DNA of 62,950 nt, counting the filler, from Reclinomonas americana ATCC 50394 (Eukaryota): assembly GCA_048213135.1 (NCBI GenBank). It is 5 parts of 2 records of this genome, joined end to end, with 100 filler letters (N's around TTAATTAATTAA, not from the genome) between each part and the next. Parts side by side here need not be neighbours in the genome. Positions count along the whole stretch, not along the records: positions 24,286 to 32,844 come from PS015272.1; positions 32,945 to 56,867 come from PS015272.1; 3 more parts are not named here. The stretch is one strand, 5' to 3'. Shown here piece after piece: positions 24,186-59,138 of the stretch. The notes under the pieces are model-generated. The model was not told where the DNA came from, did no database searches, and was given only the letters and a program-made list of their open reading frames with translations. Position numbers and translations under genes: made by a program. The first letter of the stretch is position 1. Every line of letters begins with the position of its first letter.

Positions 24186-24229
24186 NNNNNNNNNNNNNNN
24201 NNNNNNNNNNNNNNNNNNNNNNNNNNNNN

Positions 24230-24241
24230 TTAATTAATTAA
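24230..24241. other. Artificial contig linker TTAATTAATTAA inside N run
   Basis: Palindromic 12-mer with stops in all six frames, flanked by ~44 N each side. Confidence 0.95.
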
Positions 24242-24285
24242 NNNNNNNNNNNNNNNNNNNNNNNNNNNNNNNNNNNNNNNNNNNN

Positions 24286-27200
24286 TTCGTCTTCGGACCC
24301 AAACGCGGGTCAGACGCTGACGTACACGATCACGGGCGGCGCGAATCAGGCCTCGTTCAACATTAGTGGAACGAGCTTGCGATCGAATGTTGCTGGTCTC
24401 ACCGGCAGTGGTCTGCAAGTGATTGTGCAAGTGAGTGACGGAGCTGGCGGAACGGCAAGCACGACGTTTACCATTAATGAGGGTTTGTAGTGGATTTTTT
24501 CTCTGAAACATTTGTGTGACGATTCATCGACGACCTCACCGCACCGTGGTTTTTTCCCCCTTTCCTGTCTGCTATCGATACATGCAGGAGGCAATGTGAG
24601 TCCGTCGGCACCGACATTGTCGAACAACACGTACACGCCGCCGCTTGCGATGAATGGTGTGATTGGGACACTATCATCAAGCGATCCTGATGCGGGCCAG
24701 ACGCTGACGTATACGATCACGGGCGGCACGAACTCGGCTTCGTTCAACATCAGCGGAACGAACTTGCGATCCAACGTGGCTGGTCTTAGTGGCAGTGGTC
24801 TGCAAGTGATTGTGCAAGTGAGCGACGGAGCAGGCGGCACGGCAAGCACGACATTCACGATCAACGATGGTGTGTGTTTCTCGTCTCTTTTTTGTGTTGT
24901 TCACGCACACATCTCACTCGGTATCTTGTCGTGCGATATAGTCAATGTGGCGCCAACTGCACCGACGCTGTCGTCGTCGACGTACACGCCGCCGCTTGCG
25001 GTGAATGGAGTGATTGGCACGCTGTCGTCAACTGACGTGAACACGGGTCAGACTTTCACGTATACGATCACGGGTGGCACCAACTCGGCTTCGTTCAACA
25101 TTAGCGGTACCAGTCTGCGCTCGAATGTTGCTGGTCTCACTGGCAACGGGTTGCAAGTGATTGTACGCGTCAGTGACGGAACACTGACGGCGACGACAAC
25201 TTTCACCATCAACGAAGGTACGTGAGATTCCATTAGTGATGATATGTGTTTTTCTTGTGCAACTCATTCGGTGGGCATCGTTAGCCAACGTCAATCCGAC
25301 TGCGCCAACTTTGTCATCGACAACATACACGCCACCTCTCGTTGTGAATGGAGTGATTGGCACACTGGCGTCGACAGACGTGAACACGGGTCAGACGCTG
25401 ACGTACGCGATCGCTGGCGGCACGAACTCGGCTTTGTTCAACATCAGTGGCACGAATCTGCGCTCGAATGTGGCTGGCCTCTCTGGTAATAACCTGCAAG
25501 TGATTGTGCAAGTGAGCGATGGCGTTGGCGGCACGGCAAACACGACATTCACAATCAACGAAGGTCTGTTGTTTGTTTGACCTGGGCACGAGTTGATCGT
25601 AGTTTGCTCAATCTTCGTATCCGTTGCAGCGAACGTGAATCCGACTGCACCGACCTTGTCTTCATCGACATACACTCCGCCTTTGGCTTTGAACGGCGTG
25701 ATTGGCACTCTGGCGTCGACGGATGTCAACACGGGCCAGACACTGACGTACACGATCATCGGTGGTACCAACTCGACTTCGTTCAACATCAGCGGCACCA
25801 GCTTGCGATCCAGCATTGCTGGCCTCACTGGCAATAATCTGCAAGTGATTGTGCAAGTGAGTGATGGAGCAGGTGGAACGGCAAGCACCACATTTACGAT
25901 CAACGAAGGCGTGTTGCTGTCGTCTTGTCCTTCATGTGTTTGTGATGCGTCTCACTCACTATTTGTTTGCGACAGTCAATGTGGCACCAACTGCGCCTAC
26001 CCTGTCTTCATCGACGTACACGCCACCTCTTGCTGCGAATGGAGTGATTGGCACTCTTTCGTCGACAGATGTCAACACGGGTCAGACACTGACGTATACG
26101 ATCACGGGCGGCACGAATCAGACGTCGTTCAACATTAGTGGTACTAGCTTGCGGTCGAATGTGGCTGGTCTCACCGGCAACAATCTGCAAGTGATTGTAC
26201 AAGTGAGTGATGGAGCTGGTGGAACGGCAAGCGCGACATTCACGATCAACGAGGGTCTGTGTTTCATTGTCTTTTTTTGTTGCTCACACACGCATTTCAC
26301 TCAATATTTATTTGCGATAGTCAATGTGGTACCAACTGCACCGACGCTGTCATCGTCAACATACACTCCGCCTCTTGCTCTGAATGGAGTGATTGGCACT
26401 CTTTCGTCGACAGATGTCAACACGGGTCAAACATTGACGTACACGATCACGGGTGGCACCAACGCGTCCTCGTTCAACATCAGCGGTACCAGCTTGCGGT
26501 CAAACATTGCCGGCCTGGCCGGCAACAATCTACAAGTGATTGTGCAAGTGAGTGACGGAACTCTGACGGCGAGTACAACATTCACGATCAGCGAAGGTAT
26601 GCTTCGTGTCTGCCTGTCCGTGTTGATTGTATCTGTACAGCTCAGTTGTTTCTTTCTGGTTGCAGTGAATGTGGTGCCGACTGCGCCAACATTGTCGTTG
26701 TCTACCTACGTTCCGCCGCTCGCTCTGAACGGCGGGATTGGTACTCTGTCCTCTTCGGACTCAAACACGGGCCAGACGCTGACGTACACGATCACGGGTG
26801 GTACGAACTCGGCATTATTCAACATCAGCGGAACGAGCTTGCGATCCAACGTGGCTGGTCTTAGTGGCAGTGGTCTGCAAGTGATTGTGCAAGTGAGTGA
26901 CGGAGCTGGCGGAACGGCAAGCACGACGTTTACCATTAATGAGGGTCCGTAGTGGATTTTCTCTGAAACATTTGTGTGACGATTCATCGACGACCTCACC
27001 GCACCGTGTTTTTTTCCCCCTTCCTGTCTGCTATTGATACATGCAGGAGGCAATGTGAGTCCGTCGGCACCGACATTGTCGAACAACACGTACACGCCGC
27101 CGCTTGCGATGAATGGTGTGATTGGGACACTATCATCAAGCGATCCTGATGCGGGCCAGACACTGACGTACACGATCACGGGTGGTACGAACTCGGCTTC

Positions 27201-30200
27201 GTTCAACATCAGCGGAACGAGCTTGCGATCCAACGTGGCTGGTCTTAGTGGCAGTGGTCTGCAAGTGATTGTTCAAGTGAGTGATGGAGCAGGCGGAACG
27301 GCAAGCACGACATTCACGATCAACGAAGGTGTGTGTTTCTCGTCTCTTTTTGTGTTGTTCACGCACACGTCTCACTCGGTACCTTGCCGTGGGATATAGT
27401 CAATGTGGCGCCAACTATGCCTACCCTGTCATCGACGACATACTCGCCGCCACTTGCTCTGAATGGAGTGATTGGCACTTTGGCGTCAACCGACGTGAAC
27501 ACGGGTCAGGCACTGACGTACGCGATCACGGGTGGCACGAACTCGTCTTTGTTCAATATCAGCGGTACCAGTCTGCGATCGAGTGTGGCCGGTCTCACTG
27601 GCAACGGGTTGCAAGTGATTGTACGCGTCAGTGACGGAACACTGACGGCGAGTACAACTTTCACCATCAACGAGGGTACGTGAGATTTCGTGAGGGATGA
27701 TATGTGTTTTTCTTGTGCAACTCATTCGGTGGGCATCGTTAGCCAATGTGAATCCGACTGCGCCCACCCTGTCTTCGTCAACGTACACGCCGCCTTTGGT
27801 TTTGAATGGAGTGATCGGCACTCTGGCGTCGACTGATGTCAACACGGGTCAGACGCTGACGTACACGATCACTGGCGGCACGAATCAGGCGTCATTCAAC
27901 ATCAGCGGCACCAGTTTGCGATCCAGCATTGCTGGCCTCACTGGTAACAATCTGCAAGTGATTGTACAAGTGAGTGATGGAGCAGGCGGAACGGCAAGCA
28001 CGACATTCACGATCAATGAGGGTCTGTTAGTGGTTGATTGATATGGGAACGAGTTCATTGTGGTTTGCTTACTCTTCGTATCCGTTGCAGCGAACGTGAA
28101 TCCAACTGCACCGACCTTGTCTTCGTCAACGTACACTCCGCCTTTGGCTTTGAATGGAGTAATCGGCACTCTGGCGTCGACTGATGTCAACACGGGTCAG
28201 ACGCTGACGTACGCGATCACGGGTGGCGTGAATGCCTCGTCATTCAACATCAGCGGCACCAGCTTGCGGTCAAACATTGCTGGTCTCACGGGCAATAACT
28301 TGCAAGTGATCGTGCAAGTGAACGATGGAGCAGGTGGCACTGCAAGCACGACATTCACAATCAACGAAGGTATGTTGCAAACGCAGATTTTGTGGTTACA
28401 GCACCGTTCGAAGCTGATATCTTTGTTCCTTGATTGCTAAGGGGCCAACACGAGTCCGTCGGCACCAATGTTGTCGAGTAGCATGTACACTCCGCCGCTC
28501 GCTCTGAATGGAGTGATTGGCACGCTTTCAGCGAGCGATCCAGATGCGGGCCAGACGCTGACATACACGATCACGGGTGGCGCCAATGCAGCGTCTTTCA
28601 ACATCAGCGGTACCAGTCTACGATCGAGCATTGCTGGCCTCACTGGTAATAATCTGCAAGTGACTGTGCAAGTGAGCGATGGAGCTGGTGGTACGGCGAA
28701 TACCTCGTTCACAATAAGCGAAGGTTTGAAGTTCATCGACAACGTATTCGCTGTTTCTCTAGTTACTAATTTGTGTGTACAGTCAATGTCGCGCCGACCG
28801 CGCTGACTCTGTCGTCATCGACGTACACGCCACCACTTGCGTTAAACGGAGTGATTGGCACACTGTCGGCGACGGATGCGAATTCGGGTGAAACGTTTAC
28901 GTATGCGATTACCGGCGGCACGAATCAAGCGTCATTCAACATCAGTGGCAGCAGCCTGCTGTCGAATGTGGCTGGTCTCACTGGCAACAACTTACAAGTG
29001 ACTGTCCAAGTGATCGACTCCCAGGGCGGCGCGATAAGTTCCACGTTTACGCTGAGCGAAGGTTTGCCGAATCGCTCATGCTCTCTCTCCTTCGTTCCTT
29101 GTTTTCTCTCCTTCCTGTGTACTGAACGTCCGTTGTCGTCAGTCAATGTGGCACCGACTGCACCGACGCTGTCGTCGACGACGTACATGTCACCACTTGC
29201 ATTGAATGCAGTGATTGGCACTCTGGCTTCAACCGACCCCAACACCGGCCAGACGCTGACGTACACGATCACGGGCGGCGCCAACGCAGCATCATTCAAC
29301 ATCAGCGGCATTAACTTGCGCTCGAATGTGGCTGGCCTCACTGGCAGTGGTCTGCAAGTGATTGTGCGTGTCAGCGACGGAACCCTGACGGCAAGCGCGA
29401 CTCTTACGATCAGCGAAGGTTCGATTAGTTCGTTGTACCATTTTGTTTGTTTGGGCCGTGCAGCTTACGCGATCGAGTACATTCATCAGTCAATGTGCCA
29501 CCGACCGCACCGACCCTGTCTTCATCAACATACACTCCGCCACTTGCACTGAACGGCGTCATTGGCACGCTGGCGTCGACCGACGTCAATACGGGTCAAA
29601 CCATGACGTATACGATCACGGGCGGCACGAATCAGGCGTCGTTCAACATCAGCGGTACCACTTTGCTGTCAAATGTGACTGGTCTGACTGGCAATATCCT
29701 GCAAGTGACTGTGCAAGTGAGCGATGGCGCAGGCGGCACTGCGAGTACGACATTCACGATCAACGAAGGTATGCTGTTGTCTGCGTGCGTGTCTGTCATT
29801 ATTGCTCTCGTGCTCTCTTTTTAAACTCGTGGGTCAGTCAATGTGGCACCGACTGCACCGACGCTGTCGTCGTCGACATACGTACCGCCACTTACATTGA
29901 ACGGCGTCATTGGCACGCTGGCGTCTACCGACCCCAACACGGGTCAGACGTTGACGTACACCATCGCGGGTGGCACGAACTCTGCGTCGTTCAACATCAG
30001 CGGCACCAGTCTGCAGTCCAATGTGGCAGGCCTCACCGGCAACAACCTGCAAGTGATTGTGCGGGTCAGCGACGGAACATTGACCGCTACATCTACATTC
30101 ACGATCAGCGAAGGTATGCGATTGAGATGTCCCTGCGTTTTCCATGTGCATGCAGTGCTAACATGAGACTGGTGTGAATTCGTGTAGCCAACGTGGCACC

Positions 30201-33200
30201 GACGGTGCCGACCCTGTCTTCGTCGACGTACACGCCTCCTCTCGCTCTGAACGGAGTGGTCGGCACATTGTCGTCGAGTGACGTGAACACGGGTCAAACA
30301 CTCACGTACACGATCACGGGCGGCACGAACTTGGCGTCATTCAGCATTAGCGGCACCAGTCTGCGGTCGAATGTGGCTGGCCTCACCGGCAATAACCTGC
30401 AAGTGATTGTGCAAGTGAGCGATGGCACCCTGACGGCGAGTACAACATTCACAATCAGCGAAGGTGCGCTTCTTGTCTCGTCACTTTGTTGGTAACGTAC
30501 GCATCTCATCTATTATTTGCTTGTGACAGTCAATGTGGCACCGACGACACCGACGTTATCATCGACGACGTACACGCCACCGCTCGCCGTGAACGGAGTG
30601 ATTGGCACTCTTTCGTCGACGGATGTCAACACGGGTCAGACTCTGACGTACACTATTGTGGGCGGCACCAACGCATCATTATTCAACATCAGCGGAACAA
30701 ACTTGCGGTCCAGTGTTGCTGGGCTGACTGGCAACAGCCTGCAAGTGATTGTGCGGGTCAGTGACGGAACGCTGACTACGAGCAAGACGTTCACAATCAG
30801 CGAAGGTATTTGTTGGTGTTTTCGTGTTCTTTGTCCATTGGTCGTGCGACTCTCATTCCTGGCTGGGACAGTCAATGTGACACCGACTGCACCGACCCTG
30901 TCTTCGTCGACGTACACACCGCCACTCGCCGTGAATGGAGTGATTGGCGTGCTTGCATCAACTGACCCCAACACGGGTCAGTCGCTGACGTACACCGTTG
31001 TGGGTGGCACGAACTCTGCTTCGTTCAACATCAGCGGTACCAGCTTGCAATCCAGTGTGGCAGGCCTCACTGGCAACAATCTGCAAGTGATTGTGCGGGT
31101 CAGTGACGGAACGCTGACAGCGAGTACGACATTCACGATCAGCGAAGGTGTGTTGGTGTTGTCCCTTCGATTCGTGTGTGCACTGTCACTCACACAAGTG
31201 TTCGTCTCAGCCAACGTGAATCCGACTGTACCGACGCTGTCATCGACAACGTACACACCACCGCTTGCGCTGAACGGAGTGATCGGCACTTTGTCGTCTG
31301 CCGACCCCAACACGGGCCAGACGTTGTCGTACGCTATCACGGGCGGCATTGACTCTGCATTGTTTAATATCAGTGGTACCAGTTTGCGATCCAGTCTGGC
31401 AGGCTTGATTGGCAACAACCTGCAAGTGATTGTGCAAGTGAGCGATGGTGCTGGCGGCACTGCGAGTTCGACCTTTACGATCAGCGAAGGTGTGTTATGT
31501 GCTCTGATGTCTTCGTTCTGCGTTAACTCGCGCTGACTTTGCTGTGCCCGATAGTCAATGTGGCGCCGACGACACCGACGCTGTCATTGTCGACATACAC
31601 GCCGCCTCTCGCCGTGAACGGAGTGATTGGCACGCTGTCGTCGACGGATGTGAACACGGGTCAGACGCTGACGTATGCGATCACGGGCGGCTCCAACGCA
31701 TCATCATTCAATATCAGTGGAACGAGCTTGCGATCGAATGTTGCTGGCCTCACCGGTATCAGTCTACAAGTGATTGTGCAAGTGAGTGATGGCACCCTGA
31801 CGACAGCTGCGACATTCACAATCAGCGAAGGTGTGTAGCTGTCTTGAGTTTCTTCAGTTGTCTGTTATTTTGACTGACGTTGGTGACTGGATCAGCGAAC
31901 GTGGCTCCAACTGCACCGACGTTGTCATCGTCGACGTACACGCCACCACTTGCTGTGAACGGAGTGATTGGCTCGTTGGCGTCAACGGATGTCAACACGG
32001 GTCAGACACTGACGTACACAATCACGGGCGGCAACAACGCAGCGTCATTCAGCATCAGCGGTACCAGCTTGCGGTCGAATGTGGCAGGTCTCACCGGTAA
32101 CAATCTGCAAGTGACTGTTCAGGTCAGCGACGGAACTCTGACGGCGAGTACAACATTCACGATCAGCGAAGGTGTGTTTGCTGTCATGTTCCTTTGATTA
32201 TCTGTCATGTGACTGACGTGGGTGACTGCGTCAGCGAATGTGAATCCGACTGCACCGACGCTGTCATCGTCGACGTACACGCCGCCTTTGGCTTTGAACG
32301 GTGTGATTGGCACTCTGTCGTCTTCGGACCCAAACACGGGTCAAACATTGACGTACAACATCACGGGCGGCACGAATCAAGCGTCATTTAACATCAGCGG
32401 CACGAGCTTACGGTCGAATGTGGCTGGCCTGACTGGCAATAACCTGCAAGTGATTGTGCAAGTGAGTGACGGAGCAGGCGGAACGGCAAGCACTACTCTC
32501 ACAATCAACGAGGGTCTGTTATTGGTTGATGACTTAGGGACGAGTTGGTTGTGGTTTGCTCACCCTTCGTTTTTGTTGCAGCGAACGTGAATCCGACTTC
32601 GCCTTCTCTGTCTTTGTCGACATACACGCCACCACTTGCTCTGAATGGCGTGATTGGCTCGTTGGTGTCGACCGATGTGAACACGGGTCAGACACTGACG
32701 TACACGATCACGGGTGGCACGAGTCAGGCATCGTTCAACATCAGTGGCACTAGCTTGCGGTCGAATGTGGCTGGCCTGACTGGCAACAATCTGCAAGTGA
32801 TTGTGCAAGTGAGCGATGGAGCAGGCGGCACTGCGAGCGCGACANNNNNNNNNNNNNNNNNNNNNNNNNNNNNNNNNNNNNNNNNNNNTTAATTAATTAA
32901 NNNNNNNNNNNNNNNNNNNNNNNNNNNNNNNNNNNNNNNNNNNNCTGTCGTCGTGTCTTTCATGTCTTTGTTATGCGTCTCACTCATTATTTGTTTGCGA
33001 CAGTCAATGTGGCACCAACTGCACCAACGCTGTTGTCATCGACGTACACGCCACCACTTGCTCTGAATGGAGTGATTGGCACCCTGTCGTCAACGGATCC
33101 AAACACTGGTCAGACCCTGACATACACGATCACGGGTGGCACGAACTCGGCTTCGTTCAATATCAGCGGTACCAGTCTGCGATCGAATGTGGCCGGTCTC

Positions 33201-36200
33201 ACTGGCAATAATCTGCAAGTAATTGTGCAAGTGAGCGACGGTACTCTGACGGCGAGTGCGACGTTTACGATCAACGAAGGTACGCGAGATTCCATTAGTG
33301 ATGATATGTGTTTTTATTGTGCAACTCATTCGGTGGGCATCGTTAGCCAACGTCAATCCGACTACACCGACCCTGTCGTCAACGACATACACGCCACCTC
33401 TCGTTGTGAATGGAGTGATTGGCACTCTGGCGTCGACTGATGTCAACACGGGTCAGACTTTCACCTACACTATTATTGGTGGCACCAATCAGGCGTCATT
33501 CAACATTAGCGGTACCAGTCTGCGATCCAGCATTGCTGGCCTCACTGGCAACAATCTGCAAGTGATTGTGCAAGTGAGCGACGGGACTTTGACAGCAAGC
33601 ACGACGTTCACGATCAACGAAGGTCTGCTGCCTCAAGAAGATTGTGTCTTTCTCATTCGTTTTTTTATTGACTTGCCGTTACTATGTGACAGTCAATGTG
33701 GCACCGACTGCACCAACGCTGTCATCGCTAACCTATGCCTTCCCTCTTGCACTAAATGGAGTGATTGGCACTCTGGCATCTACCGACCCCAACACAGGCC
33801 AGACGCTGACGTATTCAGTCACTGGTGGTGCCGATGCTTCGTTGTTCAACGTTAGCGGTACCAACTTGCAGTCGAATGTTGCGGACCTCACTGGTAATGG
33901 TCTGCAAGTGACTGTGCAAGTGAGCGATGGAGCAGGCGGCACGGCAAGCACGACATTCACGATCAGCGAAGGTGTGCTGTTTGTTTGTGTTACTTTGTTG
34001 GTAACGTACGCATCTCATCTATCAATTGCTTGTGAAAGTCAATGTGGCACCAACGACACCGACGCTGTCTTCGTCGACATACACGCCGCCGCTCGCTGTG
34101 AACGAAGTGATTGGCACGCTGTCGTCGACCGACCCCAATACGGGTCAGACTCTGACGTACACGATCACTGGCGGCGCCAACGCATCATCATTCAACGTCA
34201 GCGGCACTAATTTGCGGTCCAATGTTGCTGGTCTGACTGGTAACAGTCTGACAGTGATTGTGCGGGTCAGTGATGGATCATTGTCGGCCAGTGCTACATT
34301 CACGATCAGCGAAGGTATTTGTTGGTGTTGTCGTGTTCTTGGAACGTCTGTCGTGTGACTCTAATTCCTGGCTGGGACAGTGAACGTGGCACCGACTGCA
34401 CCGACACTGTCGTCGTCGACGTACACATCGCCACTTTCTGTGAATGGAGTGATTGGCGTGCTTGCATCAACTGACCCCAACACGGGCCAGACGCTGACGT
34501 ACACCATTGTGGGTGGCACGAACTCGGCTTCGTTCACCATCAGTGGCGCGAGTCTGCGCTCGAACGTGGCAGGCCTCACTGGCAATGGTCTGCAAGTCTC
34601 TGTTCAAGTTAGTGATGGAGCTGGCGGCACAGCGAGCGCGACATTCATTATCGACGAAAGTTTGTTCTGCGTCCGTCTGCCATTGATCTCTTCCCGCTTG
34701 TTTCTAAATGCGTTCGTTTTGCTGTGTGTAGTCAGCGTGGCACCGACGGCACCGACGCTATCGTCAACGACGTACACGCCGCCTCTCGCTGTAAACGGAG
34801 TGATTGGCTCGCTGTTGTCTGCCGACCCCAACACGGGTCAGACGCTGTCATACGTCATCACTGGCGGCGCGAACCAGGCGTCATTCAACATCAGTGGAAC
34901 GAGCTTGCGGTCGAATGTGGCTGGTCTCACGGGTAACAACCTGCAAGTGACAGTTCAGGTCAGCGACGGCACCCTGACAGCAAGTGCAACGTTCACGATC
35001 AACGAAGGTGTGTTTGATGTCCTCGTGTTCTTGATGAATCCGTCATGCGACTGACGTGGGTGACTGCATCAGCAAATGTGGCACCGACTGTACCGACACT
35101 GTCATCGTCGACGTACACGCCGCCTCTTGCGCTGAATGGCGTGATCGGCACACTGGCGTCGACAGATGTAAACACAGGTCAGACGCTGACGTACACTATC
35201 ATTGGTGGCACGAATCAAGCCTGGTTCAACATTAGCGGTACCAGTCTGCGTTCTAATGCTCCTGGGCTGACGGGAAATGGGCTGCAAGTGATTGTGCGAG
35301 TCAGTGATGGAGCGGGCGGAACGGCAAGCACTACGTTTACCATCAGCGAAGGTGTGTCGTTTGTCCTGCCAGAATCCCCCTTTTTTCAGCTGTTGCTTAT
35401 TCGATCCACATTAGCAAATGTGAGCCCAACCGCTCCCACCCTATCGCCGACGACGTACTCGCCGCCACTCGCCCTCAACGGCGTAGTCGGGACGCTGTCT
35501 TCGGTGGATGTCAACTCTGGTCAGACGCTGACGTACACCATCATTGGTGGCTCAAATGCATCGTCGTTCAACATCAGTGGCTCGGTTTTGCGATCCAGCG
35601 TGGCTGGACTGACGGGCAATGGCCTACAAGTGTCTGTGCGAGTCAGCGACGGAGTCGGCGGCACTGCAAGCTCGACATTCATCATTAACGAAGGTCTTGT
35701 GCTTTGCATTGTTGCTGTGTTTTTTCTTCTTTTTGACAGCTCGTGCAGGCAACGTCTCGCCCACTGTACCTGTCCTCTCGCTGTCGACATATGCGCCTCC
35801 GCTTGCCCTCAACGGCGTGATTGGCACGCTTTCTTCGAGTGATCCGAACACGGGTCAGACGCTGACATTCTCTGTTATCGGCGGAGCCAATCAATCATCT
35901 TTCAATATCAGCGGGAGCAGCTTGCGTTCAAACGTCGCGGGCTTGAGTGGCAACGGCCTGCAGGTTATTGTGCGCGTGGATGATGGAGTCGGTGGTGTGG
36001 CCAGCAGCACCTTTACTATCACTGAAGGTATGTATGCTTTGCATTTCAGTTCATTTTTTGTTTCTCTTCGGTTATCTGAGTGCATTGCCCACGGCAGCCA
36101 ATGTCTCGCCCACGGCGCCGACACTGTCAGCGTCGTCGTACATGGCACCGCTCGCTTTGAATGGAGTCGTTGGTCTGTTGTCCTCGAGCGACCCGAATAC

Positions 36201-39200
36201 GGGCCAGAGCATCACCTTCACCATTACTGGCGGCGCGAACGCGTCTTTGTTCAATATTAGCGGCACAAGCTTGCGCTCCAATGTTGCCGGTCTCACCGGT
36301 AGTGGACTGCGAGTGACCGTGCGAGCGAGTGATGGCGTTGGAGGAACGGCCTCGACTTCGTTCACTATTAACGAAGGTCTGCTCTCTCGAAACCCCGTAT
36401 TGATCATCGATGCGTGCTCTCTTATTCCCCTTGTGTGTCACATTCAGTCAACTTCCCCCCGACTGCACCCACGCTGTCGACAACCACGTACATTCCACCG
36501 CTTCTGCTGAACGGTGTGATTGGCACACTGTCGTCGTCGGACCCGAACACGGGACAGACATTGACCTTCACCGTCGCCGGTGGTGTCAACGCGTCGCTGT
36601 TCAACATTGACGGATCGTCTCTGCGTTCCAATTTTACCGGACTGACGGGCAATGGACTGCAAGTGACCGTACAAGTGAGCGACGGAGTTGGTGGAGTTAC
36701 CAGTGCCACATTCGTCATCAGCGAAGGTGTGTTGCTGTGTTGACTAGTTGCATCTCTCTGACTCACTATGCTCATGTGTACACTTATTTTGCTCTGTGTG
36801 TTGCAGCCAATGTGGTGCCGACGGCGCCTACATTGTCGACCACTCTCTACACGCCACCGCTCGCACTCAACGGGACCGTCGCCACGCTGACTTCTGTGGA
36901 TCCAAACTCCGATCAAACTCTGACGTACACCATCACGGGCGGCGCACACGCGTCCCAATTCAGCATCAGCGGCGCGACTCTGCGTTCCAACGTGGCCGGC
37001 CTCACCGGCAACAACTTGCAGGTGGTGGTGATGGTGAGCGATGGCGCAGGCGGCTCGGCCACCAGCACGTTCACAATCTCCGAGAGTTGCGTTCTCTTTT
37101 TCTTTCATTTCTCTCGCTATACGTGTCTAACAACGGATGAGTGAGCAGTCAATGTTGTGCCGTCGACGCCGACGCTGTCTTCGAGCACGTACACGAAGCC
37201 CCTTGCCTTGCACGGCGTTGTGGGAGCTTTGCTGTCGAACGACCCCAATACCGGTCAGACACTGCTGTTCACCATCACGGGTGGCGCGGATCAGGCATTG
37301 TTTGTGATCATCGGTTCGAATCTGTGCTCGAACGTGGCGGGGCTGATTGGCAACGGCTTGCGGGTATCCGTGAGCGTCAGCGATGGCGCAGGTGGCGTCG
37401 CCAGCACCGCGTTCGTCATCAACGAGGGTGAGTTTCGAGCATCGCACGTCAATGGTTTTCTTGGTGACTGCCTTTTCACATGCTAATGGTCTATGTTCTT
37501 GATGCAGTGAATCTCCTCCCGACAGCTCCGGTGCTCTCCAACAGTCTCTTTGTACCCCCGCTTGCACTGAATGGTGTCATTGGCACACTGTCGTCGACGG
37601 ATGGCAACACCGGCCAGGTGCTGTCATTCACCGTCGTTGGAGGCTCCGATGCCACTCTGTTCAACATCAGTGGCTCTTTGCTGCGGAGCAACGTGGTGGG
37701 CCTGACAGGTTATAACTTGCAAGTGACGGTGCAGGTGAGCGACGGAGCAGGTGGTTTGGCGAATGCATTGTTCAGCATCAACGAAGGTGCGTCGGGCACG
37801 GAGAGTGTGTGTCCCTTTTTATGATGCCACTCACCGAGTTGTGTTTCGGTTTCTGCAGCAAATGTGGCACCGACTGGCATCACGCTGTCGTCCGCTGTGT
37901 ACAATCCGACACAGTTGCCTCTGGCGATGATTGGCACCCTCAGTTGCACAGATGCGAACACGGCACAGAGTTACACGTTTACAGTGCTGCCAACTGGCAA
38001 TGGCGCCCTGTTCCGAGTGATGAACGGCAACCAGCTGTTCATCAGCAGTGCCACCGAAACGGTCACGCCGCTCAGCGTGAGCATCAAGGCCACCGACAGT
38101 GGCACGCCGCCGCTGTCCGTCACGCAACTGCTTACCGTGAATGCTGGTGCGCATGGGAGAAGTGTGCTGTATTCTTGTGTCATTTATGTTGCTCACCATG
38201 ACAATAGCCAATCTTCCTCCTACGGGCCTTGCCCTCTCGTCGAGCGAGTATCGGCCGCCGCTGCCGTTGAATGGAGTGGTTGGCACGCTGTCGGCCACCG
38301 ATGCGAACTGCTGCCAGACGTTGACGTATCGGTTGGTTGGTGGTGCTGATCAGAGCAAGTTCACGATCGTCGGCAACCAGCTGCGCAGTAACGTCGCGGG
38401 CGGGCTCACCGGTACTGGATTGCAAGTGAGTGTGGAGGTGGCGGATGGCGCTGGTGGAACACAGATGCTGCAATTCGTAATCAACGAAGGTGAGTTGGTG
38501 GGGGAAGAATGTGGGAGAGGATGGGGGAGGGGAGGGGGAAGAACGGGGGAAACGAATGGGGAGAGGGCGCGGAGAGGATGGGAGAGAGGACAGGGGAGAG
38601 GATGGGGAAAAGAATGGGGGTAGGGGATGGGGNNNNNNNNNNNNNNNNNNNNGGGGAAAGAATGGGAGAGAGAATGGGGGAGAGGATGGGGGAGGATGAG
38701 GGAAGAGGATGGGATGGGGGAGAGGATGGGGGAGAAGGTAGGGGGGAGAACGAGGGAGAGAATTAGGGAGAGGATGGGGGAGAGAATTAGGGAGAAAATG
38801 GGAGAGAGAACGGGGGAGACGATGAGGCAGGAATAGAGAGAGAAGATGTGGAAAAGGAGGGGGGTAGAAGTTGAGGGGAGAGGATAAGGGCGCATTATAC
38901 CGTCTGTGTGTGCTCTTCCCTCTTGTTCTCTTTCTGCTCTTTCTGATTTCCTCGAGTTCATGCTCTCCTCGTCCTTCGTACTCATGCCATGGTTGTGCAG
39001 TCAATGTGCCGTCCACACGACTCGTGCTCTCCGCCTCGGCATACACTCCACCGACGCCAGCGGCCAACCAGATTGTCGGCACACTCTCCACTGTGGACCT
39101 CAATTGCTGTCAGACCTTCACGTATGCGATTGTGGGTGGTGGTGATGCTGCTCTTTTTGATCTCGTCAACGGCAATCAGCTGGTGCTGCGCAATGCCGGA

Positions 39201-42200
39201 CAGCGTGGAAGTAATCTTTCGGTCACCATCCAGTCGACCGATGACGCGACACCTCCGCTGTCCACGCAACAGTCGTTGACTATCACAGAAGGTGGGGTTT
39301 TCTTCAGCGTTCGCGTTTATTGTGAAATATTCTCGCTGTTGTCTCACTATTTCCCACCCGCAGCCAATGTGCCGCCGACCGATATTACGCTCACTGCCAA
39401 CACATACACACCACCGACGGCGACAACAAACACGGTGGTCGGCACTCTGTCTACGGTCGACATTAACAGCATCGAATCCTTTACGTATACCATTGTCGGC
39501 GGCACCTCTTCTGCGCTCTTCGCCGTTGTCAACGGCAACCAGCTGGCGCTGTTGCCGACGGGGGTACGTGGCGGTGGTTTCCGCGTTGTTGTGCGCACGG
39601 CGGATCGGTTTGGAGCGACGTTGGATAAGATGTTCATCGTCAATGATGGTGAGTTGGGAGGGAAGAGAAGAGGGGAGGGGGCAAGAGGGGAGGAGAGAGG
39701 TGGACAGCCTCGCACTTGGCACCTCTTGTATTTCTATATCCCTTCTTTGAATTCTCATTCACATCAATCTGCAGTCAACGTGTCGCCCACCGACCTCGCG
39801 CTCTCGACGGACGTCTACACACCGAACTGGCCGCAGTCGAATGTGGTGGTTGGAGTGCTGACGGTCACCGATGCCAATCCGTCCGACACGTACACGTTCA
39901 GCGTCACTGGTGGTGTCGATGCGACGAGTTTCGCCGTCAGTGGATCGTCGCTGGTCACCCGGGTGGCACGCGTCACCGGTAACCAGCTGACAGTTGAGGT
40001 CACTGGTACATGCGTCGGCTGCGGGGATGTCATTACGCGAATGTTTACTTTAAACGAGAGTTTCGTGTTTTCTTGTTTCTTCGCGAGTGGAATGTCAAAG
40101 AGCTCATGAGCATGCTGCGCAGGAAATGTGGCACCCACGCTGGTGCAACTGAGTAGCACATCGTATGTGAGACCGAGTGCGCCTTCCAACATTCCCATTG
40201 GCGCGTTGACGGCAGCCGACGACAACTGCTGTCAGACGTTCTCGTACTCTGTCGTTGGTGGCACGGACGCGTCACGGTTCTTCGTCGGCCTGGATTTGGT
40301 GCTGTATCTGCGATACGACGCGACTGTAATGTCGGGACTGCAAGTGCAGATTCAAGTGGACGACGGACAGGGTGGACTGTTTGCCGGCTCGTTTACGATT
40401 TCCGAAGGTACTTTTGTGGAAGAGTGGATACTAGAAAAGAAGTGATTGATGTGCCTGCGTGTGTTCATCATTCTGCCAGTCGTGGTGCATGCTGTTGTGT
40501 CGCTTCTCTCCTCGCCCTCATTGTTTTCATCTCCTCTCCGCTCCTCAGTCACGGTGCAACCGCTGGCTCTTTTCCTGTCGTCCACGACATACGTGCCACG
40601 AAGTGCCGCCAGCAATGCTATCATCGGCACGTTGTCGACGGTGGACGCCACTGTCGGTCAGAGTCATGTGTACGCAGTGGTCGGCGGCGCAGCGCAGGCG
40701 CAGTTCACCATCACGGGCGCCAACAAGCTGGTCCTTGTGCCGGCCAATGTCAGTGGGAACGGACTGGAAGTGGTGGTGCGCACCACCAACACGAATGGAG
40801 TCATTTTCCAAAAGACGTTTGTGATCAACGAAGGTGGGTGTATCGACGACGGCAAGTTGCTGAGGGTCTTGCGAGTTGCAGCTGACTGTGAACATTGTTG
40901 TTGTGCAGTCAATGTACCGCCTGCCGACATTCGCGTGCTTCCCGACGCCACCTACACACCGCCGACGGTGACGTCGAATACGGTGGTAGGCACACTGACG
41001 ACGGATGATGACAACGCTGCTGACACGTTCACGCACACGCTGCTGGGCGGACCTGCGGCGGACCTGTTCCAGATTGTCAATGGCACAACTCTCGTGTTGC
41101 GCAATGCTCAGCAACGTGGCAGTCGGTTCTCCGTGCTCGTGCGCTCCACGGATTCACGAGGAGCGTTCTTGGACAAGATTCTGGTTGTCGATGATGGTTT
41201 GCGTGTGGTGACGTCGCCCGATGATTCAACGCGCGTCTCTCTGTGCTCACTTTGTCTCTGCGCAGTGCCTGTGGCGCCATCCGACATTGCGCTGTCGAAC
41301 GCTGTGTACACGCCACCTGTTACCATGTTGAATACGGTGGTTGGTGTATTGTCGGCGGTGGATGGCAATTCGGATGACACATTCACGTTTGCGATTGTGC
41401 CGGAACTGGATGCGGTGAGTGAGGCACATCAAGAGAGAGGGAAGAGGGAAGGAGAAGGGAGAAGGGAGATGAAAGGAGAAGGTAGAGGGAAGGAGGAGAA
41501 GGGAGAGGGAGGGAGGAGGAGAGAGAGAAGGAGAAGAGAGAGAAGGAGAAGAGAGAGGGAAGGCGAGGGGAGAGGGATGGAGAAGGGAGAGGGAAGGAGA
41601 CGAGAGGGATGGAGTATAGAGGGAAGGGAAAGAGAAAGGGAAGGAGAATGGAGAGGGAAGGAGAAGTGAGAAGGAGAAGGGAGAGGGAAGGAGAAGAGAG
41701 GGAAAAGAGAGGGAGGGGCGACAAGGAATGAGAATGAGAGTGTCAATCGAGCAGATGATGTGGAAGACATGAAATAGAGGCGGAGAAAATAAGACAAGGG
41801 GAGAGAGGAAGAGGGAGCTGCCGCCGAACATCTTGTGTCGCCAGAGAATCATTTTCCAGTCGGTTGAGTACGTGTGTATGAGAGTGTCCGTGGTAAGGGG
41901 AGAGAGAGAATATCAGAGCACCTCCTATCAGACGCTCGTCCAATAAGGAGTGGCTCGTGGAATATACACAAGACATATAAAAACCGAAGAGGCGATGCCA
42001 AAGCTGCATCTTCGACAGTGCTGAGCGTAGAACAGTTGTTCAGCTGTTGCACAAGAGATGGGAATCTTTCTTAACGTATTTCTTAGCCTTTTTGCTGAAA
42101 ACTCTTGGCCACCTGTCACTCATTCCCCCTTCCATCATCGCAGTCACATTTTGACATCCTCGGAAGCCAGTTGGTGATGACGCAAGTTGGAGACACGGGA

Positions 42201-43440
42201 GCATGGAGCGTCAAGATCACTGTCACAGATTCCACCGCAAAGACCTTTACCAAGCTCTTTGTTGTTGCTGAAGGTTTGCATGATGTGCTTCTTTTATTGT
42301 GCACACTCCCATTAACTTGCTTCTCCTTCACGCACAGCCCGTGTACTGCCGACTAATCTGACAGTTGGCAGCACGTCGTACCCGGTGGGTCTGCCACTCG
42401 GCGGCACTGTTGCCACTCTGCGCACCGCCCACCCGAACTGCTGCGTCACCATCGTGTATACGATTATTGGCGGCGCCGATGCGGTTCGTTCTTCAGCACA
42501 CCCTTCATCTACGACGACATGCTCACTCACCTTCTTTACCACACCGTAGGCAAAATTCCGCATTCAAGACGACAAGCTGATATCGAATGTGCTTTCACTA
42601 GCCGGCAACAATCTCGAAGTGTCGATACGAACCGACGATCAGCAAGGAGGTGTACTGGAGAAGACCTTTGTTCTCTCGGAAGGTACGTTGAACAAAGTAG
42701 GGCTTTGTACTTCAAAAATCGATATGCTTACACCTCCGCAGTGCTCGTGGCCCCGAGTGAAATCTCACTGTCGGCCACCACCTACGTGCCTCGCACGCTG
42801 AACACCAATTACGTTGTTGGTACGCTGACGACCACGGACTCCAACTGCTGCGAGTCATTCACGTACACGATTCGAGGAGGCGCTCAAGCCTCCATTTTCA
42901 ACATTGCTGGCAACAAGCTGCGCTTCACGGTGGAGAATGTTGGAGGGCAGCCGTTCGAAGTGATCGTGCGCTCGACAGACTCCAATGGATTGTGGTTGGA
43001 GAGGACCTTCACCATTACAGAGGGTTTGTGTGGGTTGCTTTTTCCGTCGCTCTCTCAGCTACGTCTAGCTCACCTGTCTGGTTGACAGCGAATGCGGCGC
43101 CGGTGGGTGTGGCAATCGAACCGGCGCTGTTCAAGGGACCCGTGTCGCGCAATGGATTGGTGGGACGGCTGCGCGCGCTGGATGCCAATTGCTGTCAGAC
43201 GCATACATTCACCTTGGTTGGCGGCGCTGCCAAGGTCTGCAATCGCGATTGTCGTGGCCATTGGTCTTAATCTCCCACTCATCGTGGTGTTCCTTGAGCA
43301 GGAGAACTTTTTCATTGCGGCTGCTGAATTGCGATCGAATGTGGATCGATTGTCGGGAAGTGGAATGCAGGTGGTGATTCTGGTGGACGATGGAACCGGA
43401 GTAGGAGGCCGGATGAACAGCACTCTCATCATCAGCGAAG
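24286..43440 (+). repeat. Tandem exon-intron array, unit ~350 bp (exon ~276-291 nt + intron mostly ~60-105 nt), 51 units counted
   Basis: Nearly every exon starts after AG with the last two bases of a codon followed by AAY-GTN, and ends ATC-AAC/AGC-GAA-G|GT. Units to ~35400 are near-identical at DNA level; units after ~37800 are diverged. Confidence 0.95.
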
Positions 43441-46400
43441 GTTTGGAGAGAAAGTGAGGGAGAGAGGGGCGGAGTGAAAGAGGGGGAGTAGAAGGAAGTG
43501 GGGTGGACTGAGTGGGGGGAGGGAGAGCAGAGTGAGAGTGAGAGAGAGAGAGGCAAGAGGGATTGTGTGTGTGTGTTTCTCTCTGTGTGTGGCTGGGGGT
43601 GAGTGGAGCAGTAGGAGTGTGGGGTGGTGATAATGTGGCGGAGGACGTGCAATAGATGAAACTTCTAATCAGAGGTGGACTTAGTTCGTCGCCGTCTGTC
43701 AGTGAGTGCCTATCGAAATCGGATGCATTAGTTGCTGCTCTTTTTTCTTGAGAGCCGATTGTGGCTGAGAGGTGGTGTAAGTGGTGGTGCACCAGAGATG
43801 GAAACAATCGGTCTATGATTGTCTGTGTGTAGTTAGTTGATTGACATTCTCGTCTCTCACAGAACCGCCGCCTCCACTGCCGCCACCAACTGTCAGCCTT
43901 GTGCCCGGTGTGGCGACCAGTGTTCCAACTGGCACAACCACGGTGGCGACCAGCGTGGTGTACGCCAACTCCGGCAATGCGGTGACGTGGCAGGCGACGA
44001 CTGTTGTCGCCAGCAAGGTCAATGTGGAGCTGTGGGCACTAGTTAATGGTTTGTCTGAGCAACTGGCGCCTCCTCTCCTCTCCTGTCGCACTCACTTGGT
44101 GATCGCACGCAGGCACATTTGTGAAGCAGGTGGAACTGGCCAGTGGGCTCGACAGAGCTCTGTCGTCCACTGAATTGGATGCATCGCTCAAATCGGTGAA
44201 GAACATGGTGTCGTCGAGTGCCACGCTGAGGGTGGTGGTGACGGAGGCGTCGACAAATGGCACGGTGGTCGGCTCGACGGATGCGTTCATGTTGAAATGT
44301 TGCGAATGGGGGTGAAAGGGGGATGGGGGGCAGATAAAGAGGAGCGGAATGGGCGTGAGGGCTGAGAAGAGAAACAGGAGGGTTAGAATTGGAGAGAGAG
44401 TCAAGGGAATGAGCGAGTGACTGCAAGAAAGGAAAAGGGAGAGAGAGAAACGGAGATGAAGGAGTTGAAAGAGAGGGAGAATTGAGATAGCAGAGTGGGA
44501 CAAAAGGTGAGGGGTTTGAGAGAGAGAGAGGGTGAGAATGTACGAGTGAGTAAGGAACACGGCAAGGGAGGTGTGAATGAAGAAGGAGAGAGAGAAACAG
44601 AGATGGAGGAATTGAAAGAGTAATAATTGCGACGGCAGCAAGGGAGGTGAGAAGAAATAAGTGGGAGAGTGGACAGAGAGNNNNNNNNNNNNNNNNNNNN
44701 NNNNNNNNNNNNNNNNNNNNNNNNNNNNNNNNNNNNNNNNNNNNNNNNNNNNNNNNNNNNNNNNGAGAGAGAGAGAGAGAGAGGGTCCGAATGAAAGGTA
44801 GCTAGGGAGGTGAGAAGAAGAAGTGGAGTGAAGATAGGGATTGAGAGTGAGAGTCAGAAGGAAATGAGCGAGTGGGTGAGGGGACACAGCACGGGAAGTG
44901 AGAAGACAAAGGACAGTGAGAGAGGAGACATGGAAGGAAAAGGGCGATTGAGTGATGAAAGGCAACATTGGAGAAAAGAAGAGGCAGGGAAGAGAGCGAG
45001 CGACTGAGTAAGTGAGTGAAAGGCAGCAAGGGAAGCGAGAACTCAAGGGGAGTGAGAGGCGCAATGTGTGAGAAATATTGAGAGACAAATAGAGAGAGTT
45101 AGCAGGAGAAGGCGAGTAAGTTAAAGGCAACAGTGGAGGAATGAAGAGGCAGGCGAGAGAGCGAGCGACGCAGCAAGGGAAGGGAGAAGGAAAGGAGTGT
45201 GAGAGTTACAGTGTGTGAGGGACATCTATAGAGAGACAAAGAGACAGCGAGGTACGAAACGAAAAAGGCGAGTGATAGAAGGCAACAGTGGAGAAATGAC
45301 GAGGCAGAGAAGAGAGCGAGCGACTGAGTGAGTGAGTGAAAGGCAGCAAGGGAAGTGAGAACTCAAGGAAAGTGAGAGGCACAATGTGTGAAGGATATCT
45401 AGAGAGACAACGAAGGAGAGATAGAAGGAGAAAGCGAGTGATAAAGGCAACAATGGAGAAATGAAGAGGCAGGGAAGAGAGCGAGCGACTGAGTGGGAAG
45501 GAAGAGGAGAGTGAGACAGAAATAGAGTGAGAATGAGTGAGTTAGTGATTGCAAGGCAACATGAAGGTGAGAAGGAAAAAGGGAGAGAGGAAGCAGTGAT
45601 GGAGGAATAGATGGAGAGAGAGAGCGTGAGTGAGAGTCAGGAAAGAGAATGGGTGAATAAGTGGGAGAGACTAGGTGAGAGTGCGCGTTCGTTTCTGGCG
45701 ACATTGCTCACGAGCTCTGCTCTTTGCTCCACCCTTCGCAGACCCAAGTATCGCGAGTCGTGCGTCAGCCACACAGGCAGAACCGGCCTCAGTTGCTGAG
45801 CCGCTGCTTGTCACGTGGATTTGCGATGGACCACCAAAGGCCACGAACTTTACAATCACTGTGAGTGTGAATTCGTCGTTTGTAGGCTGCGTGCAGGTGA
45901 TCATCGCTCACGTTATTTGTCATCACATAGTTGCAACAGCGTTCCAGTTCCAGTGGCTCGCCGGTTTCACTTGGACAGGTGGCCACGCAAGTTCCTGGAG
46001 CATGCACTGCCGGTGCCAGTGCGACGACATCTGTGTCCCGTGACTCTATCAGTGGCACCGCAGCCGAGCTTGCTCGCGCGCTGAATGGCACCAATACGGC
46101 CACGCTGACGCTGGCCACCAGTGTCACCGGCGTCAAGCTGCACGGTGGCGCTGATTACTTGTTTGAAGTGACGCCGGAAGTGGATGATGTCTTGCTGTAT
46201 GACATCTCGCCGACTGAGACGTTCCGTGTGTTTGGTGAGTGGATGCAGAGGGGAGAGGGAAGAGGGGAGACACAGGAGGCATCATAGTGATTTGAGTTGA
46301 GGCGGGGGCAGTTTGTTTCTGCCAACTTTGTCTGTGCGCCAGCGCATCTCTCCCTCCTTTGCCTCTCTCTCTCTCTCATTCACCCTTGGCGTCACCCCAG

Positions 46401-56790: not shown

Positions 56791-56911
56791 AAGTCAGACA
56801 AAGTGGCAGGATATCCATGCGAAAAGTGGGGGAAGGGAATAACGAGAGCGGGTGAGAAGTTGTACAANNNNNNNNNNNNNNNNNNNNNNNNNNNNNNNNN
56901 NNNNNNNNNNN

Positions 56912-56923
56912 TTAATTAATTAA
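56912..56923. other. Artificial contig linker TTAATTAATTAA inside N run
   Basis: Same linker as at 24230. Confidence 0.95.
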
Positions 56924-59082: not shown

Positions 59083-59126
59083 NNNNNNNNNNNNNNNNNN
59101 NNNNNNNNNNNNNNNNNNNNNNNNNN

Positions 59127-59138
59127 TTAATTAATTAA
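59127..59138. other. Artificial contig linker TTAATTAATTAA inside N run
   Basis: Same linker as at 24230. Confidence 0.95.

Follow-up and report, generated by a model that had tools for sequence, protein, structure and literature searches.

Does a gene in which domain follows domain, each in its own exon and each exon bounded by introns of one phase, use this frame-neutral layout to diversify its protein by splicing, or does the layout record how the gene grew? The question is raised by a repeat array in the window, by which we mean the whole stretch of 62,950 nucleotides (filler included) that was analysed. The original prediction had described 47 consecutive repeats, each a single exon flanked by phase-1 introns, and had proposed that they might tune adhesin length or specificity by exon skipping, mutually exclusive splicing or genomic copy-number change. 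We argue below that the uniform phase is best explained by repeated copying of exon plus intron and not by a splicing-based diversity system, and we assign a probability of roughly 0.6 to the reading that cassettes of exon and intron were duplicated, with inherited phase, in a constitutively spliced gene for a surface stalk. The elements of the region are the following:

24186..24285, no strand: contig-join linker (44 N + TTAATTAATTAA + 44 N), immediately followed by the array; no domain match lies upstream.
24287..32844, plus strand: segment A, units 1-25, each domain on its own exon, with phase-1 introns of 59-108 nt.
24287..25285, plus strand: duplicated block of exons and introns, with its copy at 26749-27743.
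25218..25284, plus strand: intron after unit 3, near-identical to the introns after units 26 and 10.
32845..32944, no strand: second contig-join linker; the flanking contig ends are in register.
32945..38489, plus strand: segment B, the 3' part of an intron followed by units 26-41 (16 units), with divergence rising toward the 3' end.
38490..39000, plus strand: long intron (511 nt as assembled), purine-rich and of low complexity, with a 20-N gap at 38633-38652; donor and acceptor in phase 1.
39001..41196, plus strand: units 42-47, diverged copies; exons of 285-291 nt, one per domain, phase 1.
41266..43440, plus strand: units 48-51, continuation of the array past 41196, from profile matches and translation.
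41266-41414 and 42144-42273, plus strand: unit 48, two exons.
42338-42483 and 42550-42682, plus strand: unit 49, two exons.
42742-43023, plus strand: unit 50, one exon.
43089-43234 and 43302-43440, plus strand: unit 51, two exons.
43864..44049, plus strand: predicted next exon, a proline-rich stretch followed by non-repeat sequence, phase 1 at both ends, from translation and ORFs.
From 44114, plus strand: predicted further exon, with a gap at 44681-44764 downstream.
46301..46783, plus strand: candidate exon from ORF translation, a hydrophobic stretch of ~25 residues followed by RYRRRRDRRR.

A profile search of the window located 47 units of a ~92-amino-acid domain at 24287-41196 on the plus strand, 45 of them complete exons. 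The 47 plus-strand matches (24287-41192) have E values from 9.5e-49 to 9.8e-16 and arise partly by construction, as the profile was made from 36 of the array's own units; the same search gave no match better than E 2 on the minus strand. Units 1 (24287-24482) and 25 (32582-32844) are cut short at assembly gaps, the former without the first 27 profile positions and the latter without the last 5. The complete exons measure 276 nt (14 exons), 279 (22), 282 (2), 285 (4), 288 (2) or 291 nt (1), all 45 being multiples of three, and exon borders coincide with domain borders in phase 1 on both sides, which makes these units symmetric (1-1) domain exons. To our knowledge, the introns of metazoan cadherins generally do not lie at EC domain borders. 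Including the continuation, 48 of at least 51 cadherin-like domains in the gene are encoded by a single exon, and units 48, 49 and 51 carry an extra phase-0 intron inside the domain, at an identical domain position in all three. The spliced frame contains no stop in 4717 codons (2283, 1487 and 947 amino acids, the last segment taking in units 48-51).

Together, profile matches, splice-site pairs and open frame confirm the predicted run of 47 single-exon repeats, where “consecutive” spans the three interruptions of the array (the linkers at 24186-24285 and 32845-32944 and the 20-N gap) and the adjacency of units across the two linkers is a statement of the assembly. If the ends at the second linker belong to one unit, the loss amounts to just 24 alignment columns (16 nt of exon and 8 nt of intron); if they come from different units, it is 24 nt plus whole units. 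Since the array starts directly after the first linker, the 5' end of the gene is absent from the assembly here, as are any signal peptide and the ligand-binding end. The array is best explained as the middle of one very large gene, whose product would be a surface protein, either secreted or anchored in the membrane.

All 44 gap-free unit junctions show a predicted phase-1 donor/acceptor pair that adjoins the domain ends and keeps the frame open, 43 of them GT-AG and one GC-AG (25908; 18 nt further downstream there is a phase-1 GT as well). The two junctions that contain N's agree with this, since the sites still visible there (acceptor 33004, donor 38489, acceptor 39001) are all in phase 1. 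The predicted introns are 55-141 nt long (median 69; intron/exon length ratio ~0.25) and look real by their composition: their T content is 38% (exons, 21%), and 36 of 45 have a branch-like CTNAY motif close to their 3' end (11.2 expected from shuffles). The first base of the split codon is G at 42 and A at 3 of the 45 tabulated junctions, so any exon-to-exon join is stop-free because no stop codon begins with G or A. Likewise, because every complete exon is a multiple of three with phase 1 on either side, exons can be skipped, deleted or duplicated without a frameshift, and this premise of the original prediction is correct. The 45 junction phases are, though, not independent observations, since the units are paralogous copies.

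What kind of domain is repeated in this way? The 92 amino acids of one exon fold alone in AlphaFold2 with a mean pLDDT of 96.6, and in a Foldseek search against the PDB cadherin or protocadherin EC domains account for nearly all of the best rows (from E 1.7e-3, TMq up to 0.75, probability 1.00), with no row for this one-exon model at E ≤1e-3. Single units stay below the Pfam cut-offs, both for Cadherin (PF00028; E 0.1, 13.5 bits vs 28.8) and for Big_9 (19.4-22.0 bits vs 23.6); six of the nine units tested against Pfam have no match at E ≤1, and a 363-amino-acid read-through ORF of about three units reaches 23.4 bits against the Big_9 cut-off of 23.6. The A1 profile, by comparison, matches 17,347 representatives at E ≤1e-3, among them CELSR1 chains at 1.4e-5. 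Its top match, P0141, belongs to the same domain family and has 34 matched stretches, 36-41% identity per repeat and 742 bits on PF00028; the Atlas neighbours are cadherin clusters. Homology to clear members and the modelled fold thus place the domain in the cadherin superfamily, below the Pfam cut-off. LDRE and DxND motifs set “true” cadherins apart from bacterial cadherin-like proteins (PMC2926784), and a motif scan of the 4717 spliced residues found no DxND, LDRE or DRE, the linker reading N-E-x-N. Because the DxND and LDRE motifs are lacking, the domain is not a “true” cadherin; its fold is that of a cadherin and its type bacterial cadherin-like, so that the earlier label “cadherin” holds for the fold and not for the type. 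What the array has in common with the “true” cadherins of animals, choanoflagellates and oomycetes is the fold, tandem extracellular repeats and possibly a single-pass anchor; it differs from them in its subthreshold Pfam Cadherin score and its missing motifs.

The spliced residues are rich in threonine and serine (28%) and poor in acidic residues (D+E 4.6%), with 66 N-x-S/T sequons, among them a conserved N-I-S sequon in each domain. The low acidic content, together with the lack of DxND and LDRE, makes calcium-stiffened linkers doubtful. Tandem β-sandwich extenders from bacterial adhesins are described in PMC4083281 and PMC7493085. With this precedent and the composition above, the array is probably a long extracellular extender, or stalk, of a surface adhesin. 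Like the array, bacterial giant adhesins (P0141, P0143 and region II of MpAFP/MpIBP, PMC4083281) contain tens of head-to-tail copies in what is probably an extender role. However, their genes are single ORFs without introns (such as the 2052-amino-acid ORF of L001), whereas the array gene is intron-rich, and in the alignment their repeats keep more acidic linker residues.

The array keeps traces of how it was built. Tandem Repeats Finder (TRF) detected a period of 345 bp in 23.6 copies in segment A, a period that takes in the intron. Among 946 intron pairs with a median identity of 54%, 13 are at least 75% identical and form recurring families. Finally, the block at 24287-25285 recurs at 26749-27743, seven units (2462 bp) further on; the two are 92.0% identical across 1000 columns, as many as a 1-kb query chunk allows, in agreement with the unit pairs 1/8, 2/9 and 3/10. 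These observations indicate that copies arose by genomic duplication of exon plus intron. The boundary intron itself is old, as judged by its identical position in the distal units 42-47, which share only 35-45% amino acid identity with unit 11. Exons, in turn, show an excess of mosaic runs of identity: at p<0.01 they occur in 24 of the 666 pairs, where 6.7 would be expected, and in 10 exon pairs the observed run was reached in 0 of 300 permutations. All units are under purifying selection and thus functional: the median Ka/Ks is 0.12, the maximum 0.30, and none of the 666 pairs exceeds 1, at a median Ks of 1.16.

Inheritance is the simplest account of the uniform phase: the array would have grown by repeated tandem duplication, via unequal recombination, of a domain exon with its short intron. 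The founder exon would have been symmetric, with phase 1 at both ends and within the inter-domain linker, so that every copy inherited phase 1 and frame-neutrality would be a consequence of descent. Later gene conversion would have turned exons into mosaics, and the gene would be expressed with, most likely, all exons spliced in constitutively. Under this best explanation, the biologically important point is that whole domains can be added to the genome, or lost from it, with the frame left intact. The proposal of a diversification system thus stands for one of its halves: evolutionary copy-number change is supported by the sequence traces (345-bp period, intron families, 1-kb block, mosaic runs). 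The splicing half finds no support and meets some evidence against it (no shared intronic selector, no docking-like complementarity beyond shuffled controls in the regions scanned, short introns, no Ka/Ks above 0.30).

One pattern goes beyond plain copying. The intron after unit 3 shares 97% identity with the one that follows unit 26 (33280-33346) and 94% with the one that follows unit 10, although the flanking exons of these units are only 80-88% identical, and in all 13 intron pairs of at least 75% identity the introns have diverged far less (0.03-0.25) than the synonymous sites of the exons beside them (Ks 0.12-1.8). Neutral drift after simple duplication does not predict this difference, which needs either conversion among the exons or constraint on the introns; constraint, if present, could mean a splicing-regulatory role. 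One rival reading is modelled on the titin I-band, where domain exons are differentially included in an exon-definition genome with long introns. There, too, symmetric exons each encode one β-sandwich domain and allow in-frame changes of length. In the array, blocks of exons might correspondingly be dropped in some conditions to give a stalk of variable length, and the 3n exons and the stop-free joins would permit it, while the intron families that are better conserved than neighboring synonymous sites could reflect constraint from splicing regulation. However, the array's introns are far from the long introns of titin, and sit beside exons of 276-291 nt. Across eukaryotes, short introns and a low intron/exon length ratio are associated with low exon skipping (PMC6142364), and short introns thus argue against frequent skipping. 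In addition, the 45 introns share no common motif or selector (the best 8-mer occurs in five), and purifying selection is similar in all units, so that we regard regulated length tuning as unlikely. Mutually exclusive choice of one or a few homologous exons per mRNA, by docking-selector RNA structures as in Dscam, is extremely improbable. Dscam has clusters of 12, 48, 33 and 2 alternative exons, and homology, similar length and shared frame serve as prediction criteria for mutually exclusive exons (PMC3228551); the array's dozens of tandem homologous exons share all of these features. Yet the Dscam clusters lie between constitutive exons and depend on pairing of docking and selector RNA (PMC6071210), whereas the units here constitute all of the ectodomain that can be seen. 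Neither such complementarity nor a selector common to the introns was found: in a scan with 9-mers and up to one mismatch, covering one upstream region and five long introns with their flanks, no single site was complementary to more than 3-8 of 45 introns, against a shuffled mean maximum of 4.2-8.9. Tandem inclusion is, moreover, natural to this domain family, as the 34 stretches of P0141 and the uninterrupted ORF of L001 illustrate.

The introns carry a further signal that duplication with constitutive splicing does not predict. Intron length is a multiple of three in 25 of 45 cases (P = 0.0018 vs 1/3), and 12 introns of 3n length also lack a stop when read in the exon frame, where shuffles predict 5.4; with one intron kept per family, the counts are 20 of 34 (P = 0.002) and 11 vs 4.3, a correction done by hand that may leave residual kinship among introns to inflate the excess. 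It is tempting to see here an error-tolerant architecture, in which more than 50 introns per transcript would lead selection to favor skippable exons, symmetric throughout, and retainable introns, so that splicing mistakes yield slightly shorter or longer working proteins. On the other hand, in-frame stops persist in 13 of the 25 3n introns and in 22 of 45 overall, and the excess was measured against one third and shuffles rather than genome-wide introns; we consider this idea quite improbable. Almost as doubtful is the broader proposal that a gene frame-neutral at both levels, with skippable exons, an excess of retainable introns and intron families that vary less than the synonymous sites nearby, uses or tolerates variable splicing to make graded stalk lengths. 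If it were true, splicing-based length diversity would exist for a bacterial-type domain in a short-intron eukaryote that is probably not an animal. That the array is a wrongly joined or wrongly collapsed repeat, or a relic without expression, is very unlikely. Two artificial linkers and one N gap do interrupt the array, which borders a contig end on its 5' side, but the contig ends meet in register at the second linker, and an open frame of 4717 codons with Ka/Ks 0.12 at Ks ~1.2 is unlike a relic. Nucleotide identity between units is 61-96% (median 74%, a difference of 4-39%), and the merging of identical copies is therefore not the chief concern within contigs.

The array thus belongs to a known class, that of tandemly duplicated symmetric 1-1 domain exons, and is probably a surface-adhesin extender. 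Symmetric class 1-1 modules of exon shuffling, found with tandem exon duplication in extracellular multidomain proteins, are reportedly an idea of Patthy. Symmetric 1-1 domain exons are described as a trend in PMC6547436. The array agrees with this class in its autonomous domain per exon, phase-1 ends, 3n length, tandem order and co-duplicated introns. It differs in scale (one gene with 48 or more single-exon copies), in its very short introns, in its bacterial-type cadherin-like domain and in the look of a short-intron eukaryote rather than a typical animal gene. It shows, cleanly and at unusual length, how a gene grows by whole domains via a symmetric exon, and, as a bacterial-type domain that lacks the calcium motifs typical of true cadherins yet lies inside an intron-rich eukaryotic gene, it bears on the spread and remodelling of adhesion-type repeats outside animals. 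Were exon content variable, this would be a rare case of protein-length diversity via exon skipping in a short-intron genome; were it invariant, an ordinary repeat-expanded surface protein. Downstream of the array, neither the predicted exon at 43864-44049 nor the candidate exon at 46301-46783 has a Pfam match, and the hydrophobic and basic stretch of the latter is a possible membrane anchor and a possible part of the array gene.

Three-frame translation of the window revealed a recurrent module of about 92 amino acids on the + strand, whose reading frame shifts between copies. A sequence profile built from 36 copies matched the + strand 47 times within 24287-41192 (E from 9.5e-49 to 9.8e-16), and on the - strand of the window it returned nothing better than E 2; the original prediction of 47 consecutive repeats was therefore correct in both number and coordinates. 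Match 1 is without 27 profile positions and match 25 without the last 5, and both are cut by linkers. Altogether, the window (a eukaryotic scaffold) contains 18 runs of N, its interruptions including the following.

24186-24285: artificial linker (44 N, TTAATTAATTAA, 44 N), a six-frame stop spacer, ending exactly where the array starts
32845-32944: identical linker, inside the array
56868-56967: identical linker
59083-59182: identical linker
38633-38652: gap of 20 N inside the array

The presence of these four linkers means that the record was put together from chained contigs, and adjacency across a linker is the assembler's statement. At the second linker, the flanking contig ends are in register, and what is missing amounts to 24 columns if the two ends share one unit, or else to 24 nt plus whole units. 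Upstream of 24186, a profile search and Pfam analysis of ORFs gave no domain match and no recognizable exon, which indicates that the gene lacks its 5′ end here. The array also extends past 41196, into units 48 to 51. Because sequence is missing at the second linker and the 5′ end is absent, the unit number is a lower bound, and the true number is at least 51.

To resolve the exon-intron structure, every GT/GC...AG pair preserving an open frame was enumerated at each of the 44 N-free junctions. All 44 have a predicted phase-1 pair directly at the domain ends, with 43 GT donors and a single GC donor (25908), 18 nt downstream of which lies a phase-1 GT; at the two N-containing junctions, the visible sites (acceptor 33004, donor 38489, and acceptor 39001) are likewise phase 1. 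Exon length among the 45 complete copies is 276 (14 exons), 279 (22), 282 (2), 285 (4), 288 (2), or 291 (1) nt, in every case a multiple of 3, so that the predicted architecture of one domain per exon between phase-1 introns is borne out at the sequence level. Since the split codon starts with G at 42 of the 45 junctions tabulated and with A at the other three, no exon-to-exon join can give a stop, and the spliced translation is stop-free over three segments of 2283, 1487, and 947 residues. The short introns of the array (n = 45) span 55 to 141 nt (median, 69), share the donor consensus GTNTGT and the acceptor YAG, and contain 38% T versus 21% in the exons; a CTNAY motif lies 5 to 45 nt before the 3′ end in 36 of them, versus 11.2 expected from shuffles. 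The idea that these spacers are not introns was rejected, given that the frame changes between neighboring exons, that 22 of the 45 contain in-frame stops, and that splice and branch signals are enriched.

As to the identity of the domain, single units fall below every Pfam cutoff (Big_9, 19.4 to 22.0 versus 23.6 bits; Cadherin, 13.5 versus 28.8), and of nine units tested, six drew no Pfam match. The sequence profile of the array units (A1), on the other hand, matched 17,347 representative proteins at E ≤ 1e-3, as well as CELSR1 and cadherin-23 chains. Its top match, P0141, is a protein of 4098 amino acids with 34 matched stretches at 36 to 41% identity per repeat, and in a Pfam scan covering three of the best A1 representatives it scored 742 bits on Cadherin; another matched protein, P0143, has a signal for type IX secretion. 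In a word-indexed search, all organism-named matches were bacterial (Planctomycetes and others; 25 to 35% identity). An AlphaFold2 model of the product of one exon reached a pLDDT of 96.6, and the PDB entries that Foldseek ranked best were, with few exceptions, EC domains of cadherins or protocadherins (E from 1.7e-3, probability 1.00, TMq up to 0.75); Atlas neighbors are cadherin clusters, bacterial wherever a taxon was recorded. Taken together, the profile, P0141, Foldseek, and Atlas results assign the domain, as judged from sequence and a predicted model, to the cadherin fold and superfamily. The calcium motifs LDRE and DxND, described as separating “true” cadherins from bacterial cadherin-like proteins (PMC2926784), each occur zero times in the 4717 spliced residues, only 4.6% of which are D or E. 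Threonine and serine make up 28%, and there are 66 N-x-S/T sequons, with N-I-S included in the unit consensus; such a composition would fit an extracellular, glycosylated stalk. A metagenome search with one unit found a single distant locus, L001 (33% identity), and no close intron-bearing relative. The L001 match (2245-8403) lies inside an uninterrupted ORF of 2052 amino acids, a prokaryote-style relative without introns.

We then turned to the origin of the array. Tandem Repeats Finder reported a period of 345 bp, equal to exon plus intron, with 23.6 copies. Exon identity among units 2 to 39 ranges from 61 to 96% (median, 74%); the introns are mostly unalignable (median identity, 54% over 946 pairs), except for 13 pairs at 75 to 97% identity that group into families, by unit (1,8), (2,9,6), (3,10,26), (4,11,24), (18,28), (19,29), and (22,23,31). 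A block of about 1 kb (24287-25285) is repeated 2462 bp, or 7 units, downstream at 92% identity. A Sawyer-type runs test, applied to 218 polymorphic columns, placed 24 of the 666 exon pairs at p < 0.01 (6.7 expected), and in 10 pairs the observed run was not reached by any of 300 permutations; these excess runs of identity show that the exons are mosaics, as gene conversion or unequal exchange would give. The period, the intron families, the duplicated block, and the mosaic exons support that part of the original prediction which envisaged frame-neutral copy-number change in the genome. Amino acid identity to unit 11 drops from 75 to 96% in units 2 to 32, to 65 to 76% in units 33 to 39 and 35 to 45% in units 42 to 47 and 50, indicating that the 3′ units are old and that expansion in the center and on the 5′ side is more recent. 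As the boundary intron position is common to all units, the intron is probably older than the expansion; the uniform phase would thus have been passed on by one founder cassette rather than arising in 45 independent events. Nei-Gojobori estimates for the 666 pairs of units 2 to 39 gave a median Ka of 0.16, Ks of 1.16, and Ka/Ks of 0.12 (maximum, 0.30), and on this measure every unit is long maintained as protein-coding. Diversifying selection across the whole domain was rejected, with Ka/Ks > 1 in none of the 666 pairwise comparisons.

It had also been proposed that the array diversifies through splicing. A Dscam-type system, as described in PMC6071210, requires an intronic selector per exon and a docking site. 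No shared selector was found, the commonest 8-mer being T-rich and present in only 5 of 45 introns. In six candidate docking regions, comprising the long introns together with 1 kb of upstream and 0.4 kb of downstream sequence, a complementary 9-mer (up to 1 mismatch) to any one site was present in no more than 3 to 8 of the 45 introns, not above shuffled regions. With introns of about 69 nt against exons of about 279 nt, the intron/exon ratio is low; in a comparison of 65 eukaryotes, levels of exon skipping tracked intron length and this ratio, with low values in non-bilaterian lineages (PMC6142364). Homologous exons of equal length and frame are reported among constitutive exons too (PMC3228551), and in the bacterial relatives (the P0141 repeats and the L001 ORF), domains of this family are normally all included in tandem. 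Regulated skipping, or splicing-based diversity in general, finds no supporting evidence in the sequence and is disfavored relative to cassette expansion.

Only two intron features, neither of them predicted by the simple expansion model, hint at anything beyond it. In all 13 similar intron pairs, which were chosen for intron similarity, intron divergence (0.03 to 0.25) is far under the Ks of the flanking exons (0.12 to 1.8). The introns after units 3 and 26 (25218-25284 and 33280-33346), for example, are 97% identical, and their flanking exons 80 to 83% (Ks, 0.69 and 0.84). Conversion among exons can inflate exon divergence; constraint on the introns is another possible cause. In an alignment of units 3, 10, and 26, the sharp change in identity falls at the intron borders. 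The second feature is that 25 of the 45 short introns (24483-41265) have a length divisible by 3 (P = 0.0018), and 12, versus 5.4 expected, are in addition stop-free in the exon frame; with one intron per family kept, these values become 20 of 34 (P = 0.002) and 11 versus 4.3. Counted in this gene alone, the excess could reflect tolerated intron retention or a property of the genome.

Symmetric phase 1-1 domain exons have been linked to exon shuffling and to titin. The coincidence of exon and domain borders and an excess of phase 1-1 exons around domains are described as known trends (PMC6547436), and variable intragenic repeats have been reviewed as a source of rapid change (PMC3899988). Tandem β-sandwich extenders are well known from bacterial adhesins, such as MpAFP with about 120 copies of a 104-residue repeat and calcium in the linkers (PMC4083281, PMC7493085). 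The locus brings these elements together, with a probable bacterial-type cadherin-like extender encoded in a eukaryote by 48 or more single symmetric exons. A limited literature search found no published description of such a gene, which is weak evidence that none exists. What the locus chiefly offers is a clear illustration of cassette expansion.

The distal units and the surroundings of the array comprise the following features.

41415-42143: additional phase-0 intron in unit 48 (729 nt, full of purine-rich low complexity)
42484-42549: additional phase-0 intron in unit 49
42742-43023, + strand: unit 50, a single exon
43235-43301: additional phase-0 intron in unit 51
43864-44049 and from 44114: two more predicted phase-1 exons, followed by another gap
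46301-46783, + strand: candidate ORF with a hydrophobic stretch of about 25 residues, then RYRRRRDRRR
1632-3485, + strand: myotubularin-like phosphatase exons (Pfam E 6.4e-24 and 1.4e-11)
55318-56301, - strand: WD40 beta-propeller gene (E 8.3e-53 in a separate Pfam search)

The additional introns occupy the same domain position, after GGxxA, and are absent from the 47 upstream units and from unit 50, reflecting either loss in the amplified founder or gain in the distal subfamily. The ORF at 46301-46783 may belong to the repeat gene as its 3′ portion; with a sequence that resembles a type I anchor plus stop-transfer signal, it is a possible membrane anchor. Pfam analysis of 112 flanking ORFs recovered myotubularin only, with no candidate for the 5′ end of the gene upstream of the array. 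In units 41, 42, 45, 49, 50, and 51 (for instance at 38210-38488, 39003-39290, and 40125-40406), the conserved motif D-x-N-T-G-Q-T becomes D-x-N-C-C-Q/E/V-T, with two adjacent cysteines; units 1 to 25 contain no cysteine. Every long intron of the gene is filled with purine-rich, GGGAGAGGGAAGGAGA-like low complexity, as are a number of intergenic regions (38490-39000, 41415-41800, 43441-43620, and 44320-44680; also 20268-20463 and 23100-23700), and assembly gaps are often located in such sequence. The 126-bp tandem repeats at 54647-55801 are the WD repeats of the WD40 gene.
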